A stretch of 64,000 nucleotides of DNA from positions 16,368,001 through 16,432,000 of the forward strand of contig OX597820.1 in the NCBI GenBank assembly GCA_951406725.2, in the 5' to 3' direction. The translations under genes and the position numbers were made by a program. This stretch comes from Octopus vulgaris. Lineage: Eukaryota. Positions 6,629 to 50,368 of the stretch are shown here, piece by piece; the stretch's first letter is position 1, and every line of letters starts with the position of its first letter. A model generated the notes under the pieces. It saw only the letters and a program-made list of their open reading frames with translations. It ran no database searches and was not told where the DNA came from.

Positions 6629-7641
6629 ATATGGAACCACCTATACACCTCGTTCGACCAGAGCGTAGTGGAAGGGACACTACCTACAAGGTAGTTGATT
6701 TAAAGTTAATAGCCACTCATAGTCGTAGGAGTGGCTGTGTGGTAAGTAGCTTGCTTACGAACCTCATGGTTCTGGGTTCAGACCCACTTTGTGACACCTT
6801 GGGCGAGTGTCTTCTACTATAGCCTCGGTGGGGAAGCTATACGCCAAGGAAACCGGGAAACCGGCCCTTATGAGGCATGGCTCGAAATAGGAACAAACAA
6901 TATGGAACCACCTATACACCTCGTTCGACCAGAGCGTAGTGGAAGGGACACTACCTACAAGGTAGTTGATTTAAAGTTAATAGCCACTCATAGTCGTAGG
7001 AGTGGCTGTGTGGTAAGTAGCTTGCTTACGAACCTCATGGTTCTGGGTTCAGACCCACTTTGTGACACCTTGGGCGAGTGTCTTCTACTATAGCCTCGGT
7101 GGGGAAGCTATACGCCAAGGAAACCGGGAAACCGGCCCTTATGAGGCATGGCTCGAAATAGGAACAAACAATATGGAACCACCTATACACCTCGTTCGAC
7201 CAGAGCGTAGTGGAAGGGACACTACCTACAAGGTAGTTGATTTAAAGTTAATAGCCACTCATAGTCGTAGGAGTGGCTGTGTGGTAAGTAGCTTGCTTAC
7301 GAACCTCATGGTTCTGGGTTCAGACCCACTTTGTGACACCTTGGGCGAGTGTCTTCTACTATAGCCTCGGTGGGGAAGCTATACGCCAAGGAAACCGGGA
7401 AACCGGCCCTTATGAGGCATGGCTCGAAATAGGAACAAACAATATGGAACCACCTATACACCTCGTTCGACCAGAGCGTAGTGGAAGGGACACTACCTAC
7501 AAGGTAGTTGATTTAAAGTTAATAGCCACTCATAGTCGTAGGAGTGGCTGTGTGGTAAGTAGCTTGCTTACGAACCTCATGGTTCTGGGTTCAGACCCAC
7601 TTTGTGACACCTTGGGCGAGTGTCTTCTACTATAGCCTCGG
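6556..7641 (+). repeat. Four identical 271-bp tandem units (SINE-C tail + unique spacer + SINE-A head)
   Basis: Units start at 6556, 6827, 7098 and 7369; identical 100-aa ORFs at 271-bp offsets confirm the period; GG microhomology at the junction. Confidence 0.97.
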
Positions 7642-7703
7642 GTCGACCAAAGCCTTGTGAATGGATTTGGTAGACGGAAACTGAACGAAGCCCGTCGTAT
7701 GAC

Positions 7704-14515: not shown

Positions 14516-14589
14516 ATAATTAGGAATTGCATTTTAAAATAATTGTTAAAATGTTTTAGGAGTGGCTGTGTGGTAAGTAGCTTGCTTAC

Positions 14590-16647
14590 TTCCGGTTAAT
14601 CAGAATGCAACACTAGTTGGTCTGGACTGTTATAGTGAGATGTGAGTTTCGGCTCCGTGAATAGAAAAAAAGAACAAAAAGAAAAATTGTCAATTATGGC
14701 TCGCTATAGCGAGCAAAATACTGGGTTCCCATCACCGTAACGGTGAATTGAGAATTTTTGCTTGAAAATTTTTTTGTAAATTCTAGTGGGCGTATCTCGC
14801 CAGAAAAATAAGAATAAGCCATTTGGATTACCTTTTTGGAGTATTATACAAAGGATTCTCTGTCTGTTCTATTTGTGAGGTTTTTCTTTTCCTTTTCCCT
14901 TCTTCTATTTTTTCTTTCTTTTTAAATTTTGGTTCATTCTTTTCATTACTTTAATTTCAGTTTCCTCCCTCCTCTTTTATTTTGTTTTATTTTTATTCGG
15001 TTTAATTTTTTGGCAGACTGTCTTTTGAACTACTTTTGAACTGTTTTTTGACATGGCAGAGAAGGAACTTAAAAAGAAAAACCCTGTCTTAGAGTGGGAA
15101 ATTAACCCGCCTAAGCAGTGGTTAAAAGATATGGAGGAGAAGACGATGGTACTTAGAACTTATTCTAAAGTTCTTAATTCCATCACCGTCTTCCCAAAAC
15201 AAGTCATAAAAAAATGAACTTAAAGAACATTTGTCCTCTGTAAAATATATATCCCGTGGTGTCAAACATGCAACCGTATGGTTGCTGTTTGACAACGGGG
15301 AAAAGGCTCGCCAGTTTGCGAGTCAGCGTTTAGAAGGCAAGGAAATCCTGTTCCTTCCGTCATATTGTGGAAGAAAATTAATACAAGCCTGGGTATGTGG
15401 GTTACCCCCAGGCACCGAAACGGATTGGATTGAAGATACCATCCGACGGGGACTGGGGGATGGCGGGCCAAGGCTCTTAAATGTAAGGGTATTGCCGGCG
15501 GTCGATTGGGAAGGGTCAAAAGCGATTTTGACCCTGTGGTCCCCATCGGCCGCAACAGATCTGGTTTTTCCAGATTTCTTGAAAATGGCTGGCTGCAGGT
15601 ATCCGGTGATACTTGAGGGACGTCCCCCCAAGTGTCACTCGTGCCTCGAAGCCAGGCTACATTAAAAGGAACTGCCCCCAGGACCATGGTAAGGTCCTGG
15701 AACAGTCACTAGATGCCACCTCCCCTACCCGGTCAAAGGGAGAGGTGGATGTGGTCGAGGAGGCTTCAGCCTCCTCAACTCAAAAAGGATTAAAAAAGAA
15801 GAAGGCGGGCAACAATAGTTGCCCGCCGAAGGAACCTAAGGCTTCGGGAGGCGGGGGAGAGTCTTCGGACAAAACGGAAGAGCTCCACTCTCCCGAAGTC
15901 AGGAAGAAAAGAATAAAAAGAAGGAAGAAGAACGGGTCATCTCAGCGGGGAGATGATGTGCCGTCTGCATGTTCCGAAGTTGTGCCACCCACGGTGGAAG
16001 AAACCACTCCCACCCTTAAAGATGATCAATTAATTATCTTTTTCTATAAGGGCGGGGAGGTGGAAAAATAGTAGAAGAACATAAAGAGACAGTAGATATG
16101 CCCTTCGCACGGGATCCCGAATGGCCTCCGCAAATAGCTGTGGAGGTCATAAGGTTTCCCTTGTGGGAAAGGCTTAAAGGATTTGGGGAGGAGTGTCGCA
16201 TATGGCCGGGTGGCCCTTACACGACTTACATGTCCTACATGAGTGAGGCATGGGAAATGGCGGAATACAGGAACTCAAGCGGCATTGAAGATAATGATGA
16301 ATATATCGATGGATATATATCGAAGAGTAGGAGGTGAAAGACCCTCGTTATAGGGTTTGAAATCTCATCTTATTGTATTATTTGTAGTGGTTTATAACCT
16401 CAATTGTGTGTTTAAAAAAAAACATGTTAAGTAAGAGGTTTTAGTGCCTCCTTCTTGTAAGAGGTTTGAAACCTCATATTGATTTTTAAAAAAAGAAAAT
16501 ATGTTTTCGAGAAAAATCCAATCGGCGGGTGTTGGGTTTCGTCTCTCATTTATTCATTCTACTTCATTTTCATTCATTAATGTGTTTGTCCAGCCCGCAA
16601 AGCTACACACTCTTTGTACTGTCTATGATGACAAATTTTATGAAATA
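14590..16647 (+). mobile_element. ORF1-only (HAL1-like) non-autonomous Tx1/L1-type retroelement inserted into a SINE-A head
   Basis: 15-bp TSD AAGTAGCTTGCTTAC at 14575-14589 and 16648-16662 splits a SINE-A (head 14558-14589, remainder 16648-16980). It has a T-rich 5' UTR, one gag-like ORF and a 3' UTR ending ATGAAATA; I see no RT or EN sequence. Confidence 0.8.
15053..16337 (+). pseudogene. Frameshifted LINE ORF1 (gag-like, zinc knuckle)
   Basis: ATG 15053 MAEKELKKKNPVLEWEINPP.., frameshift in the A-run near 15210, then ..YPVILEGRPPKCHSCLE/KPGYIKRNCP (CX2CX4H(Y)X4C knuckle across a frameshift) and a Lys/Ser/Glu-rich tail. Confidence 0.75.
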
Positions 16648-16984
16648 AAGTAGCTTGCTTACCAACCACATGGTTCCGGGTTCAGTCCCACTGCGTGGTA
16701 CCTTGGGCAAGTGTTTTCTACTATAGCCTCGGGCCGACCAAAGCCTTGTGAGTGGATTTAGCAGACGGAAACTGAAAGAAGCCCGTCGTATATATGTATA
16801 ATATATATGTATGTGTGTGTGTATGTTTGTGTGTCTGTGTTTGTCCCCCAACATCGCTTGACAACCGATGGTGGTGTGTTTACGTCCCCGTAACTTAGCG
16901 GTTCAGCAAAAGACACCGATAGAATAAGTACTAGGCTTACAAAGAATAAGTCCTGACTGAAACAACTAAGAAATAAAAGATACA

Positions 16985-25510: not shown

Positions 25511-25982
25511 AAATATGTGTTACTCATAAGGGTCGATTTAGCCGATTATGTGTAAACAGGCAAGTTTTGGCATTGAATTAATTGCCAAGCTATAGCAACC
25601 TATTATTAACTAGGTTCTTAATTATTGTGGGTTGCATATTTATTATACACACACATACATAACACATATGTATATATATATATTTATATATATACATATG
25701 TGTGTGTGTGTATTGTCTTAATGCATCTTCTTAATAAGACTTGAAAGGCATCATTAATAAAAGCGAATTAAAAGAAAGATAATCATTCACGAAGCCTTGT
25801 TGGAAGTATTTATTAGATTAATCTATCAGAACTTTCTTTCTCTCTTTCGCACATGAACCGGCTTTCAGATGTGTAAAGAGGGAATAAAACAATAGCAGGC
25901 AGACGCTTTCATGGTTGTGTGGCTAAGAAGCTCGCTTGACAACCATGTGCTTTCGGGTTCCGTCCTACTACTACATCAGGGC

Positions 25983-26076: not shown

Positions 26077-27804
26077 CAGTAGTTTTATTTTTATAGCGTG
26101 CTTTCACTTCACTACCGAGCGCAGCTCTGTGTGCCTTGGGTATGTGCTGTGATTTGTTGTGATGCTCTGATGGTTATTGTATGGAAAGTGTTCTGCGTAG
26201 GATGTGTGCAGTGCCTAGTAGTGCAATTTTCTGTATGTTATATGTGTTTGTAAGTCCTGGTGTTTTTGTTATGTATTTGTCTGAATATTTTTTTATCATG
26301 CCTAATGCACCTACTATGATAGGAATTGTTTCTGTTTTCAGATTCCACATTCTAGTTACCTCTATTTCCAGGTTTTTGTATTTTGAGAGTTTCTCCATTT
26401 CTTTTAGAGACACGTTGTCATCAGCCGGTATTGATACATCAATTAGAAAGCATTTTTTTTCTTCATGATCTCTGACAACTATATCTGGTCTGTTGGCCTT
26501 AATTTCTCTATCTGTGTGTATCGGCATATCCCAGAGTATGGTTGCTTTCTCGTTTTCTGTGACCTTTTCTGGTGTGTGCCTATACCATCTTTTTTCTGTT
26601 GTTATTCCATAATGTTGGCATAGCTTCCAATGTATGTAGGTTCCAACTCTGTCATGTCTGTGAATATATTCCTTCTTAGCCAAGACTGGGCAGCTAGAGA
26701 TAATATGATTTATTGTTTCTTGTCCATCTCCACATATTCTGCAGTTACTTGTAATATTTCTTTTCATTACATGTTTTTGGTAATTTCTGGTGGGGAGGCT
26801 TTGGTCTTGTGCTGCAATTAAAAATCCCTCTGTTTCTGTTTTGAGTCCTGAGCTTCTCAACCATTGCTGGGATTTTTCTTTGGCTATTTCTTTTGCGTTT
26901 AGTTTAGTTCAGTATTTACCATGAAGGGGCTTTTCTTGCCATCGTTTTATCATGGTTCGTTGCTGTTCTATTTTTAGTTTGGATTTCATTTGTTTTATAG
27001 CTTTTGTTGTTTCTTCATCTTCTTCTTCTTCTTCATGTTTATTAGGTGGTATGATTTCTTGTTTGTATTTGTCAGCTTCCTTAAATACTGAGAACAGTTT
27101 TTTGTTTTGCTCGTGTTTTGCCGTTATCTGGATCAGTTTTCCTTCCTTCTGAAGTAGATATTTTTGCAGTCCTATGGTGGCTATTTTATAGTAGTTTTCC
27201 AGCTGTATAAGGCCTCTACCACCTTCTATACGTTGTATATATAGTCTTTCTATGTCAGATTTTGGGTGATGCATCCTAGATCCTGTCATTATTTTTCTTG
27301 TTTTCCTATCTATTTTGGTCAGTTCATTTCGTGTCCAGTTAAGGATATTGTAGCTGTAACTTATAACTGGGACAGCTAAAGTGTTGATACCTATTATCTT
27401 GTTTTTAGCATTGAGCTCTGTGTTTAGTATTGATCTAACTCGTCTATAATATTCTTTTTTTATTTTCTCTTTCATTTGTGTGTGTTGTGTCTTATCTAGT
27501 TCATGGATTCCTAAGTATTTGTAAGTTTGGCTTTGGTCTAATTCTTTTATTTCATTGGTTTTACCTAGTGTGATGTTGTTACTCTTAACTAGTTTTCCTC
27601 TTTTCAGGGTTACTTTGGCGCATTTTTCTAATCCAAATTTCATATCTATTTCTTTGGTAAATCCATGAACTGTCTTTAATAGTGTTTCCAGCTGTTTGTC
27701 ATTTGCAGCGTATAGTTTTAGGTCATCCATATATAAAAGGTGGCTGATCGTTTTGCCGTAACATTTATATCCGCATCCAGTTCTATTTAGCATATCAGAT
27801 AGAG

Positions 27805-28552: not shown

Positions 28553-28564
28553 CAATATTATTAA

Positions 28565-29475
28565 GGCGGCGAGCTGGCAGCACCGTTAGCACGCTGGACA
28601 AAATGCTTAGCAGTGTTTAGCCCGTCGCTACGTTCTGAGATCAAATTCCGCCGTGGTCGACTTTGCCTTTCATCCTTTCGGGGTCGATTAAATAAGTACC
28701 AGTTACGCACTGGGGTCGATAAAATCGACTTAATCCGTTTGTCTGTCCTTGTTTGTCCCCTCTGTGTGTAGCCCCTTGTGGGAAGTAAAGAAATAAGAAG
28801 CTTGCTTCCCAACCACATGGACTCCGTGGTCGATCCCACTGTGTAGCCCCTTGGACAAGTATCTTCTACTATAGCCTCGGGCTGACCAGAATGGATTTGG
28901 TAGGCGGAAACTGAAAGAAGCCCGTCGTGTATTTATATATATATATAATGTTTGTGTCTGTGTTTGTTACCGTACCATCGCGTGACAACCGATGCTGGTG
29001 GGTTTACGTCCCTGTAACCAAGCGGTTCGACAAAAGTGACCGATAGAATAAGTACTAGGCTTACAAAAAATAAGTCCTGGGATCATTTTGTTCGACTAAA
29101 GGCGGTGCTCCAGCAAGGCCGCAGTCAAATTACTGAAACAAGTAAAATAATCGTGAAGGTGCGTGGTTTCGTGGTTAGGGTATTCTGTTCACCTTCATAA
29201 AGTCATGAGTTCGGTTCCCGGTAGAGTATTGTCTCCTTGAGCAAGACACTTTATTTCACGTTGCTCCAGTTCATTAAGTTGACAAAATTGAGCTGTACCT
29301 GTAATTCAAAAGGCCAGCCTAGTCACACTCTGTGTCACGCCGAATCTCTCTAAGAACTATGTTAAGGGTACACGTGTCTGTGAAGTGCTCAGCCACTTGC
29401 ACGTTAATTTCACGAGCAGGCTGTTCCATTAATCGGATCTACTGGAACCCTTGCTTGCCATCAAAACGGAAGGAG
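28565..29475 (+). mobile_element. Chain of SINE-B (28565-28794), headless SINE-A (28795-29148) and SINE-D (29155-29475)
   Basis: The SINE-B tail AAAGAAATA joins AGAAGCTTGCTTCCC of SINE-A. SINE-D has a tRNA head and the CORE-like TCCTTGAGCAAGACACTTTATTTCACGTTGCTCCAG. Confidence 0.85.
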
Positions 29476-38382: not shown

Positions 38383-39182
38383 ATATATAACTTGTACCAT
38401 GATTTTTGTTCTTGAATAGTATAATTGTTATTCCTGTTTGCTTACCCTTGGAAAATATGAAGAATGGCTTATATTTCCTCCAAACTTTGCTTCTGTAACA
38501 TTTACTCAAACCCTGAAGAATCCCTCTCAACATATGGCTATGATGCTCCCCCACTACTCCTGCTCATGATCAGAGATGCACATATCGTCGGCCACTAAGG
38601 GACATGCTCAAGTGGTTATGGTCAAGCAACTGACAAGCAAATCTGTGTGTGTTGAGCTTTAGCCATATTTCTGCTTGAGCAACTCAGCGTTGAATCTGTC
38701 TGAAATGCAGTGGAAAATAGGTCAGTTTCAAGACATTAATGTCCAGGTCACAAAAGCAAAGTTTGAAGGGAATAGTAGTCATTTCCTTTGATTTCTAGAT
38801 GGAAACAAATAGGAAATAACACCTGCTGGCCAAAGACCTAAAAAAAATTGAAATTAAAATTGTGTTACACAATGTAGAAAATTTAAAGCGGAGAGCTGGC
38901 AGAATCGTTAACACGACCGGTAAAATACATAGCGGCATTTCGTCCGGCTTTACGTTCTGAGTTCAAATTCCGCCGAGGTTGACTTTACCTTTCATCCTTT
39001 CGGTCGATTAAATAAGTACCAGCTTTCCCTTACCCCGAAATTCTTAGCCTTGTGTCAAGATTTCAAACCAATATATATATTTGATAGATTTGTAACCATC
39101 CAATTCTTGCTGCCATCTCTTGGGAAGATTTTCACTATTATTGTCTCAAGTTCCTGGCTCCGAGAGTACAACTTTCATGTTT

Positions 39183-39637
39183 TACTGTCAAATTCCGCCG
39201 AGGTCGACTTTGCCTTTCATCCTTACGGGGTCGATTAAATAAGTACCAGTTACGCACTGGGGTTGATATAATCGACTTAATCCGTTTGTCTGTCCCTGTT
39301 TGTCCTCACTATCTTTAGCCCCTTGTGGGTAGTAAAGAAATAGGTATTTCGTCTGCCGCTACGTTTTGAGTTCAAATTCCGCCAAGGCCGACTTTGCCTT
39401 TCATCCTTTCGGGATCGATTAAATAAGTACCAGTTACGCACTGGGTGCGATATAATCGACTAAAACCGTTTGTCCCCTCTGTGTTTAGCCCCTTATGGTC
39501 GACTTTAACTTTCATCCTCTCGGAGTCGATAAATTAAGTACCAGTTACGCACTGGGGTCGATGTAATCGACTTAATCCCATTGTCTGTCCTTGTTTGTCC
39601 TCTCTGTGTTTAGCTCCTTGTGGGCAATAAAGAAATA
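39183..39637 (+). mobile_element. 5'-truncated SINE-B multimer with 18-bp TSD
   Basis: AGTACAACTTTCATGTTT at 39165-39182 and 39638-39655; an uninterrupted paralogous site lies at 41089-41106. Confidence 0.88.
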
Positions 39638-40097
39638 AGTACAACTTTCATGTTTGGTGGCTGGTTGTACCATTTTCAAAAAAAAAAAAGCAAACTCCTT
39701 TCTATCCTATCTACAAGTTCTTCATTCTTTGCAACTATATTTTATCACTACACTGTTATGGAACCTAATCGACTCCTTTCTATTATTTTTTTCTTCTTTA
39801 CGCCAATCCTCGTTATATTAGTAAGAAGTGCCTTGAGTTAAAATTTTCTCAGTTCCGTTATCCGATTCCTGCTGACTCCTCTTACTTAGAAATTACAGAA
39901 GCTATGTCTGTGTCTATAAGTTCAGCATAATTTCCTCGTACATAGCGTACGAATGGATTATGCATAGACAACAGTTTCGAACTCCGAGATTAAGCCGTAT
40001 CCGCTCCTTTAATTAAAACATTAAGTATAGTTTAGCTGATCTACTACGGTTGCTTTCCGTTCACTACAACGTAGCTGGATTAACTAATTGATATGTC

Positions 40098-40997
40098 AAA
40101 CAATTATGATTATCATAATTCCCACCGAAACCGCGTCGGTGGGAATTGTGTCACCGGCGGAGGAAACTGTGGGCCCTTCCTATGCATCGGATGAGGACGC
40201 TTGTTGCCCTCATTAATCATCATTTTCATTTTTCATTTCATATAACATTATGTCTATGTCCAGCCCGCAGCTTCCTTTCTCTATGTAAGGCTTTTATGGC
40301 CAATATAATGAAATAAAGAAACTTGCTTCCCAACCACATGACTCCGGGTTCAGCCTCCCTGCATGGCACCTTGGGCAAATGTCTTCTACTATAGCCTCAG
40401 TCCGACCAAAGCCTTGTGAGTGGATGTGGTAGGCGGAAACTGAAAGAAGCCTGTCGTAATACATACATATATATATGCGTGTGTGTGTTTGTGTTTGCCC
40501 CCTCCACCTTTTGACAACCAGTGTTGGGGTGCTTATGTCCCCGTAACTTAGCGGTTCAGCCTAAGATATCGATAGTACCAGGCTTAAAGCAAAAAGTACT
40601 GGGATCGATACATTTGACTATTAATTCTTCATGGCGGTGCTCCAGCATGGCCGCAGTCTAATGACTGAAACAAGTAAAAGATAAGAAATATGTAATAGAA
40701 GGCGCGTGGCTTAGTGGTCAGGGTAATCGGCTCACGGTCTTAAGGTTGTGAGTTCAATTCCCGGCGACGCGTTGTGTCCTTGAGTAAAACACTTTATTTT
40801 CACGTTGCTCCAGTCCACTCAGCTGGCAAAAATTAGTAATACCCGTATTTCAAAGGGCCAGCCTTGTCACACTGAATCTACGTTAAGGGTACACGTGTCT
40901 GTAGAATGTTCAACCACATGCACGTTAATTTCACGAGCAGGCTGTTCCTTTGAATGGGTCAACTAGAACCCTCGTCGTCATAACCGTCGGAGTGCCA
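40098..40997 (+). mobile_element. LINE-like 3' end (40098-40317) fused to headless SINE-A (40318-40685), then SINE-D (40699-40997)
   Basis: Shares TGTCCAGCCCGCA..ATGAAATAAAG with the 3' UTR of the 14590 element and joins SINE-A at the same head position. Confidence 0.75.
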
Positions 40998-41805
40998 TGA
41001 TACGTAATAGACTTATACAACCAAGCCTTCTTGCTGCCGTCTCTTGGGAAGATTTTCACTATTATTGTCTCAAGTTCTTGGCTCCGACAGTACAACTTTC
41101 ATGTTTGGTGGTTGGCTGTACCATTTTCAATAAAAAAAAAAGCAAACTCTTTTATATCCTATCTACAAGTTCTATCCAGTATCTCTATATACATCCAGAG
41201 TGCATCAAAAATGCCATTCCAGTCCTCTGTTAATATGAGTGAATAGAATATTTCTGCTAATACCTCGAAATGTTTGAAGGAGTCTGACTATTCAGCTATT
41301 TTCTCACCTTTAATTACCATTGTCAATAAAGACATGAAAACCTATCTTTCAAGATGCATCCTATGGATGCTATGAGATGCATCACCTGTAATGTTTCTTG
41401 GGTATCAGGTAATCTCGGGTCTTTTAACATCAGACCTTCCTCACTCGGTTAACTCAGACGGGATTAATCAAACCCTAGCTTGCATCCTAGTAACAACAAA
41501 CAACTAGTCCGCCCTCAGTATCCAATACCATTTGTGGTCTTCTATGCAGCATCAGTTATGGAATTTATGAACCTCATCTTTACTACACTAGTAAGACCCA
41601 GCCCAATCAGAGCTTTCAGAGTTTACGCGCCACAAAACCCCGGTAGCCCACTTCAATTGCCTCACAACGTGTCTACCTGCCCTATTTCTGGGTTACTCTA
41701 CCAGCTCCTTGTATACTGATTTGAGGGCCCACTTCAATTGCCTGGCAACGTGCCTACCTGCCCTATTTCTAGATTACTTTATCAGCTCCTGGTATACTGA
41801 TTTGA

Positions 41806-42033
41806 GGGCGGCGGGATGGCAGAAATGTTAGCACGCCGGGCGAAATGCTTAGCAGTATTTCGTCTGCCGCTACGTTCTGATGTCAAATTCCACCGAGGTC
41901 GACTTTGCCTTTGATCCTTTCGGGGTCGATTAAATAAGTACCAGTTAAGCATTGGGGTCGATATAATCGACTTAATCCGTTTGTCTTTGTTTGTCCCCTC
42001 TGTGTTTAGCCCCTCGTGGGTAATAAAGAAATA
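41806..42033 (+). mobile_element. SINE-B monomer with 14-bp TSD
   Basis: GGTATACTGATTTG at 41791-41804 and 42034-42047. Confidence 0.9.
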
Positions 42034-49950: not shown

Positions 49951-50368
49951 AGTCGCAGGAGTGGCTGTGTGGTAAGTAGCTTGCTTACCAACCACATGGT
50001 TCCGGGTTCAGTCCCACTACGTGGGCACCTTGGGCAAGTGTCTTCTACTATAGCCTCGTGCCGACCAAAGCCTCGTGAGTGGATTTGGTAGACGGAAATT
50101 GAAAGAAGCCCGTCGTATATATGTATATATATATATGTGTGTGTATGTATATGTTTGTGTCTGTGATTGTCCCTCCAACATCACTTGACAACCGACGGTG
50201 GTGTGTTTATGTTCCCTTAACTTAGCGGTTCGGCAAAAGAGACCGATAGAATAAGTACTAGGCTTACAAAGAATAAGTCGTGGGGTCGATTTGCTCGACT
50301 AAAGGCGGTGCTCCAGCATGGCCACAGTCAAATGACTGAAACAAGTAAAAGAGTAAAAGAGTAAAAAG
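49951..50368 (+). mobile_element. SINE family A (older 3' half follows at about 50420-50635)
   Basis: Complete head, body and tail. Confidence 0.9.

Follow-up and report, generated by a model that had tools for sequence, protein, structure and literature searches.

How does a retrotransposon that encodes no reverse transcriptase come to lie at a defined base of a SINE, and has that base been used more than once? The question is raised by a 64-kb window of the Octopus vulgaris genome, by which we mean the whole stretch of 64,000 nucleotides analysed here, in a setting of many SINEs and microsatellites. An initial annotation, made from the letters alone, had described an ORF1-only LINE derivative splitting a copy of a SINE that we call SINE-A. 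We followed up the element itself, its relatives in public contigs, and the site at which it lies.

The boundaries of the insert are exact. A sequence search of the window recovered two identical copies of a 15-mer (14575-14589 and 16648-16662), and the 2058 nt between them (14590-16647; Table 1) agree in length with the element first proposed, as does its 15-bp target-site duplication (TSD). The marks of retrotransposition are the duplication and the absence of long terminal repeats and terminal inverted repeats (neither direct nor inverted terminal words reach 8 nt). A 3' poly(A) run is absent from the insert. An AATAAA straddles its junction with SINE-A (16644-16649). The longest stop-free frame is 153 aa in the insert as a whole and 55 aa in its 3' UTR, and no Pfam match to a reverse transcriptase (RT) or endonuclease (EN) was obtained in the six insert frames scanned, in agreement with the original description of an insert without either enzyme.

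Table 1. Features of the insert, its target and the two further SINE-A junctions in the window (positions are those of the 64-kb window)
Feature	Position	Strand	Basis
SINE-A 5' head with A-box-like motif (14563-14573) and left TSD copy (14575-14589)	14558-14589	+	Motif match
Decayed ORF1-only non-LTR element of a multicopy family	14590-16647	+	TSD, contigs; 2058 bp
5' UTR, 463 nt, second half T-rich	14590-15052	+	Sequence; contig coverage in 4/4 runs
ORF1 N-terminal part: predicted tandem RRM-like region and first knuckle half, divided between two frames near 15210	15053-15662	+	67-69% identity to P0001; P0001 fold
ORF1 middle piece past second break: remaining knuckle and basic low-complexity linker	15648-16068	+	46% identity to P0001 186-272
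Likely ORF1 C-terminal piece, 95 aa, past third break near 16063, TGA 16335-16337	16050-16337	+	Frames
3' UTR, 310 nt	16338-16647	+	Sequence; final ~140 nt homologous to tail 40178-40315
Right TSD copy 16648-16662 and SINE-A body, B-box-like motif 16679-16689	16648-16980	+	Alignment
Full SINE-B (28564-28795), then headless SINE-A from model position 19	28564-29140	+	Alignment
3' end of related, diverged element	40178-40315	+	Tail alignment
Headless SINE-A, more diverged type, from model position 18, then second SINE family	40316-40690	+	Alignment

The coding capacity of the window copy is decayed. Three frameshifts divide ORF1, some 427 codons long, into four pieces (15053-15214, 15210-15662, about 15648-16068 and 16050-16337), and an imperfect palindrome lies within it (15498-15553). 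The last piece is likely to be continuous with the rest of ORF1; relatives of it were looked for and none were found. An Octopus sinensis protein, P0001, matched the insert in three pieces by TBLASTN, at 67%, 69% and 46% identity. The protein search with ORF1 gave one match at E 8e-64 and 13 weak ones, 11 of which look like members of the same family and six of which carry Octopus protein names; P0007 and P0010 (unrelated repeats) and P0015 (a near-duplicate) were omitted from the alignment. Further ORF1 remnants were not found within the window.

For P0001 the AlphaFold model (pLDDT 73, pTM 0.50; 14 sequences) has tandem-RRM proteins as its best PDB matches, at low global TM-scores of about 0.2-0.27, and its Atlas neighbours comprise RNA-binding clusters of CCHC and ZCCHC3 type (0.90-0.92) and one cluster with RRM plus CCHC (TM 0.56). 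The ORF1 protein is accordingly modelled as two predicted RRM folds and one predicted CCHC knuckle. This combination of RRM and CCHC knuckle is the Type I layout, which has been linked, in non-mammalian animals, to the Tx1 clade, and in plants to L1s as well (PMC5203782); not being exclusive to Tx1, it is a likeness to that clade and not a test of membership. Transposase_22, the mammalian L1 ORF1 type, gave no match, and the relatives show only zf-CCHC, below or near the cut-off. The zinc knuckle named in the initial annotation is thus recovered, in an ORF1 that is not intact: the knuckle of the window copy spans the second frameshift and reads C-x2-C-x4-Y-x4-C, its His codon having become Tyr at 15658.

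Parts of the insert were present in 20 of the 24 public runs listed, under four organism labels. Four runs (X1, X3, X5 and X15) were aligned to the insert and its SINE flanks at 80% likeness, and in every one of them all 30 bins of the insert were covered. In the three larger runs, a single variant letter was carried by 9-16 contigs near the 5' end and by as many as 103 near the 3' end. The element is therefore multicopy, on the strength of full bin coverage and of the many contigs per variant letter; contig depth was not taken as copy number.

ORF2 is absent in several diverged copies. Among the 32 pieces listed, at least four contigs from three runs pass the ORF1 stop with at least 31 nt on either side: X1#7 (16243-16449; 24 other letters in 207), X3#24 (16167-16388; 13 in 218), X5#30 (16145-16558; 56 in about 406, with 22 gaps) and X5#32 (16236-16513; 29 in 278). 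Two more contigs, X15#16 (16446-16604) and X1#8 (16459-16672), extend the tile, which is then continuous over 16145-16672, and since it is collinear from the ORF1 stop to the tail, no ORF2 fits between stop and tail in these copies. The proposal of an ORF1-only family is borne out by these diverged contigs, which share the layout from ORF1 stop to 3' end without ORF2, and we regard such a family as highly probable.

Two explanations would deny the existence of that family. Internal deletions are frequent in LINE copies, and the initial annotation had itself allowed that a normal two-ORF LINE might have lost ORF2 in the window copy only. Yet at least four contigs in three runs, 13-56 substitutions away from the window copy, are collinear past the ORF1 stop, and the tile reaches the tail; a private deletion is largely refuted and now appears very improbable. 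The copies might instead be retrocopies of a host RRM-CCHC gene (ZCCHC3-like) and not a selfish element at all. P0001 is indeed a RefSeq gene model with three accessions, and ZCCHC3-type domains occur among its Atlas neighbours, but the protein ends after 281 aa and is without the first Cys of its knuckle, and the many diverged Octopus paralogues, the dozens of variant contigs per site and the absence of a poly(A) tail all speak for an element, so that a host-gene origin seems to us most unlikely. The sections of PMC10351740 consulted contain no statement on the origin of ZCCHC3.

The contigs also indicate which lesions of ORF1 belong to the window copy. Most contig depth retains the His codon (C at 15658; 12810 of 13163 in X1 and 7688 of 8069 in X3). 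Of the extra bases, the one at 15208 is missing from most of the depth in X3, X5 and X15, though not X1, and that at 15647 from most of the depth in X1 and X3 and from a fifth of it in X5. Because most contig depth thus has the His codon and is without the extra bases (in three and two of the four runs, respectively), the breaks at 15208 and 15647 look private to the window copy. Two observations weigh on the other side: the third frameshift is missing in only 11-27% of contig depth, and contig X3#19, in which the match starts at 15575, has 641 further letters that do not align to the element. An autonomous sibling with ORF2 may exist, and its contigs would then show as loose ends. Over 16065-16289 the three larger runs have roughly threefold the contig depth of adjacent bins; given this depth, there may be further subfamilies conserved in the C-terminal piece.

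The target, SINE-A, is abundant in the window, where the stretch 14559-14589 occurs identically at seven places. With the insert taken out, the two halves join into a SINE-A whose identity to 10 free copies in the window is 89-94% (model positions 18-154). In an unsplit copy at 49957, the A-box-like motif occupies model positions 6-16 and the B-box-like motif positions 49-59 (relaxed consensus patterns), and it is by this spacing, with motif starts at 6 and 49 and 43 nt apart, that SINE-A is classed as tRNA-derived. Neither ARAGORN nor Rfam, even at E 10, returned a tRNA match for it; SINE heads are commonly without a detectable tRNA match. The initial annotation had placed the split just after the A box, and this was confirmed: a single base separates the motif from the duplication, and the A and B boxes now lie on opposite sides of the insert. 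Elsewhere in the window, four head-to-tail 271-bp units (6727-7692), identical where shown, each contain the first ~100 nt of SINE-A.

Evidence that the site has been used again comes from a second tail. A related 3' end had been reported at 40098-40317, next to SINE-A at the same position; both the homology and the shared base were upheld, with the tail ending at 40315. Alignment of the tail that ends at 16647 with the one that ends at 40315 shows them to be homologous: the local score is 77, with 68 matches in 97 columns, and none of 500 dinucleotide shuffles scored above 47. About 140 nt can be aligned, back to about 40178, and both tails adjoin SINE-A at model position 18. The SINE-A copies that follow them, at 16648 and 40316, are of different types, 87% alike. 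The chance that the second tail would meet the same SINE-A base is 0.0004 without motif bias, and 0.007 (AAG, RGWA) to 0.03 (TAAG, AAGWA) with it, values that were computed post hoc and assume 17 SINE-A sites, where the window listing gives about 20.

The second locus is less complete than the first. No Pfam match to RT, EN or ORF1 was found in 11 frames around 39614-41716. Of 13 SINE-A head matches in the window (up to 10 mismatches), only that at 14560 is split, and neither a head nor a duplication was found 5' of 40316 or of the further SINE-A junction at 28794, so that each of these sites shows a 3' junction only. At 40316 the 5' part may have been lost by rearrangement, since the second element and its SINEs are bracketed by a direct repeat of about 170 bp (39084-39721 and 41007-41175; 89-94% alike). 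Template switching between RNAs is a possible alternative origin of a headless SINE behind an intact tail. A SINE-B tandem, which has an 18-nt duplication, interrupts the first copy of the direct repeat, and a near-perfect 15-bp hairpin (40115-40151) lies 5' of the second element's tail. A headless SINE-A of the diverged type, followed by the same second SINE family, is found at both 28794-29451 and 40316-40990, with 73% likeness over about 700 nt.

Two contigs also reach into SINE-A, X1#8 (27 other letters, 7 gaps) entering the body by 25 nt and X15#9 (14563-14997; 10 other letters, 10 gaps) entering the head by 27 nt, both short of the junction threshold of 31 nt. Assembly from 31-letter words can be expected to end a contig some 30 nt inside a repeat of such abundance. 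The distance to the contig end was 42, 42, 41 and 37 in the four runs at 14599, and 48, 46, 46 and 39 at 16631, which places the ends at roughly that depth in every run, whereas at many internal places in X3 it was 75-150; this is an indirect reading. Among the junctions listed, every one of the family is at SINE-A position 18, with no counter-example. The reuse of the site, as first claimed, receives weak to moderate support from the second tail and the two sub-threshold contigs, and a strong preference for this SINE-A position strikes us as somewhat more probable than its absence.

The initial annotation had added a third case, a SINE-B tail at 28794 said to adjoin SINE-A at the same position. 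It does adjoin SINE-A, albeit at position 19, as against 18 for the elements; as independent evidence for targeting it was not supported. In the window, 22 of 27 SINE-B tails precede RGWA (GGTA, AGTA or AGAA), and five of the six single SINE-B sites judged duplicated start with RGTA, against a background of 1.8%. Thirteen of the 27 tails adjoin SINE-B near position 49 and three adjoin it near position 17, making 16 in SINE-B copies, and one adjoins SINE-A. Position 17 of SINE-B falls within the A-box-like motif of that SINE and not beyond it; the common feature is thus a short motif and not a tRNA position. The 28794 junction is best read as one case of the RGWA preference of SINE-B, and is weak evidence for the targeting of SINE-A, although one enzyme could serve both SINE-B and the element.

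Homology of the SINE-B tail to the element tails was rejected, their scores being reached by 30-135 of 500 shuffles; the last six bases are common. At 25924, 14 nt match the flank of the 28794 junction; this match was likewise rejected as a duplication, being an unsplit SINE head. SINE-B (GAAATA tail, 13084-59407) shows 9-24-nt duplications at single sites, also forms 184-bp tandems in which the join falls at its own position 49, and adjoins an older sister type at position 17 (38184, 48753 and 53670); at 41646-41809, two tandem 81-bp units lie directly 5' of a SINE-B.

What SINE-B does in this window could also be what the element does. The same ORF1-only family might be served by an endonuclease that prefers a short motif only (T/AAG or RGWA), which the abundant SINE-A heads contain, and besides the bias of SINE-B tails and duplicated sites described above, AGTA lies one base into the duplication at the SINE-A site. 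Against this, all junctions seen (5' and 3' in the window, 40316, X1#8 and X15#9) fall at one SINE-A position, where each extra match has a chance of 0.007-0.03, and we consider a purely motif-driven choice unlikely, if deserving of serious attention. Shared junctions would equally be expected if a few old SINE-A insertions had been amplified as composites of head, element and body through the SINE tail, with their flanks inherited; such composites exist here, as the ~700-nt block of headless SINE-A and second SINE is present twice. Yet the SINE-A sequence around the element is as near to free copies (89-94%) as those are to one another, whereas divergence reaches 14% among copies of the element and is higher still between the two tails, which are followed by SINE-A of different types. 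An outer duplication was looked for and not found, and all of this makes inheritance of the flanks improbable. We think it similarly improbable that the partner endonuclease evolved for the D-loop region of a true tRNA gene, with the SINE head as a decoy. By box spacing the site is the equivalent of the tRNA D-loop, and Dada elements do target the A-box region of tRNA genes (PMC8869645), but no tRNA gene lies within the window and SINE-A, as noted, has no Rfam tRNA match.

The reading that we prefer, at slightly better than even confidence, is that of a non-autonomous, ORF1-only retrotransposon of L1/Tx1 type, copied in trans by a partner LINE that prefers this SINE-A site. The partner is probably of Tx1 type. 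In O. vulgaris, 13 recently active L1-Tx1 families with 421 insertions have been recorded (PMC13282606, table 1), and candidate partners therefore exist. A profile search among 5734 candidates of 1092-3115 aa yielded no ORF1-ORF2 fusion, which is a weak negative. A search by tail pattern returned no viral contigs and 23 metagenome stretches, which had no BLAST likeness to the element or to SINE-A and were dismissed as chance. The window also holds a LINE remnant on the minus strand (26174-27793), between (TTA)n runs, with an RT (Pfam RVT_1) and, downstream of it, a region of zinc-binding and restriction-endonuclease-like character; we take it to resemble R4/Dong elements.

Under the preferred reading, the element would be transcribed from its own 5' UTR and its RNA coated by the ORF1 protein. 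The ORF2 protein of the partner would bind the conserved ~140-nt 3' tail and nick the bottom strand of the SINE head no more than two bases from the T/AAG step; A residues at the RNA end could pair at the nick, where reverse transcription would be target-primed. A top-strand cut about 15 nt downstream would then give the 15-bp duplication, and the insertion, by setting the A and B boxes 2 kb apart, would silence the SINE copy while sparing genes. The Tx1-like endonuclease and the safe harbour of the initial annotation are inferences, and the search for an RT or EN linked to this ORF1 or tail found none, a weak negative. More tentatively, and at a likelihood that we put well below even, the element may have persisted for long as an ORF1-only parasite of a Tx1-type LINE that targets SINEs, keeping a working RRM-CCHC protein across subfamilies at least 14% apart and disabling a competing abundant SINE between its A and B boxes, with ORF1 perhaps aiming insertion as the HeT-A Gag does. 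If the preference is real, the partner endonuclease has thousands of natural target variants per genome, from which its recognition rules could be read, and the family would offer a non-mammalian test of why non-autonomous LINEs retain ORF1.

Among known systems, the closest in mode of action is HAL1 (half-L1) of mammals, a non-autonomous LINE derivative that encodes ORF1p only (PMC5753468). The octopus element is likewise ORF1-only: it has a single ORF1-type gene without RT or EN, bears the marks of retrotransposition, and lacks ORF2 in several copies (the four contigs among the 32 pieces listed). It is not HAL1 proper, which derives from mammalian L1 and has a Transposase_22 ORF1, whereas the octopus element has a predicted RRM and CCHC ORF1, no poly(A) and an appearance of site bias; by mode of action it is a HAL1-like non-autonomous LINE, likely with a target preference. 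HeT-A of Drosophila telomeres is also Gag/ORF1-only, without pol, site-restricted and in need of a partner RT (PMC5537684). It belongs to another lineage, however, targets telomere ends via Gag and benefits its host, while the octopus insertion is internal and duplicates its target.

As to the choice of site, Tx1, Keno, Kibi, Koshi and Tx1-Mar occupy fixed positions in multicopy sequences, including other transposons, and the targets named for the Tx1 clade are DNA transposons, LTR elements, U2 and U5 snRNA, 5S rRNA, satellites and microsatellites; a non-LTR family has there been called target-specific when more than 20% of its flanks are of one type (PMC4494074). Such LINEs share with the octopus element a Type I-like ORF1 and the targeting of repeats, but they encode ORF2, and neither a SINE head nor the tRNA arrays cited in the initial annotation are among the targets named in the sections of that source consulted. 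The crocodilian SINEU shares the target preference of its presumed mobiliser, Tx1-Mar (PMC4494074), and so pairs a non-autonomous element with another repeat as target, as here; unlike the octopus element, SINEU is non-coding, has snRNA-derived heads and targets Mariner. Dada transposons insert around the A box of tRNA (Pol III) genes (PMC8869645), again the A-box region of Pol III units, although these are DNA transposons and their targets are real tRNA genes. Our search of the literature, Repbase Reports and the O. vulgaris Zenodo library apart, found no octopus family that is ORF1-only or that targets SINEs. ORF1-only LINEs and repeat-targeting Tx1 LINEs are thus each known, and what appears to be new here is their combination, with a SINE promoter as the probable target.
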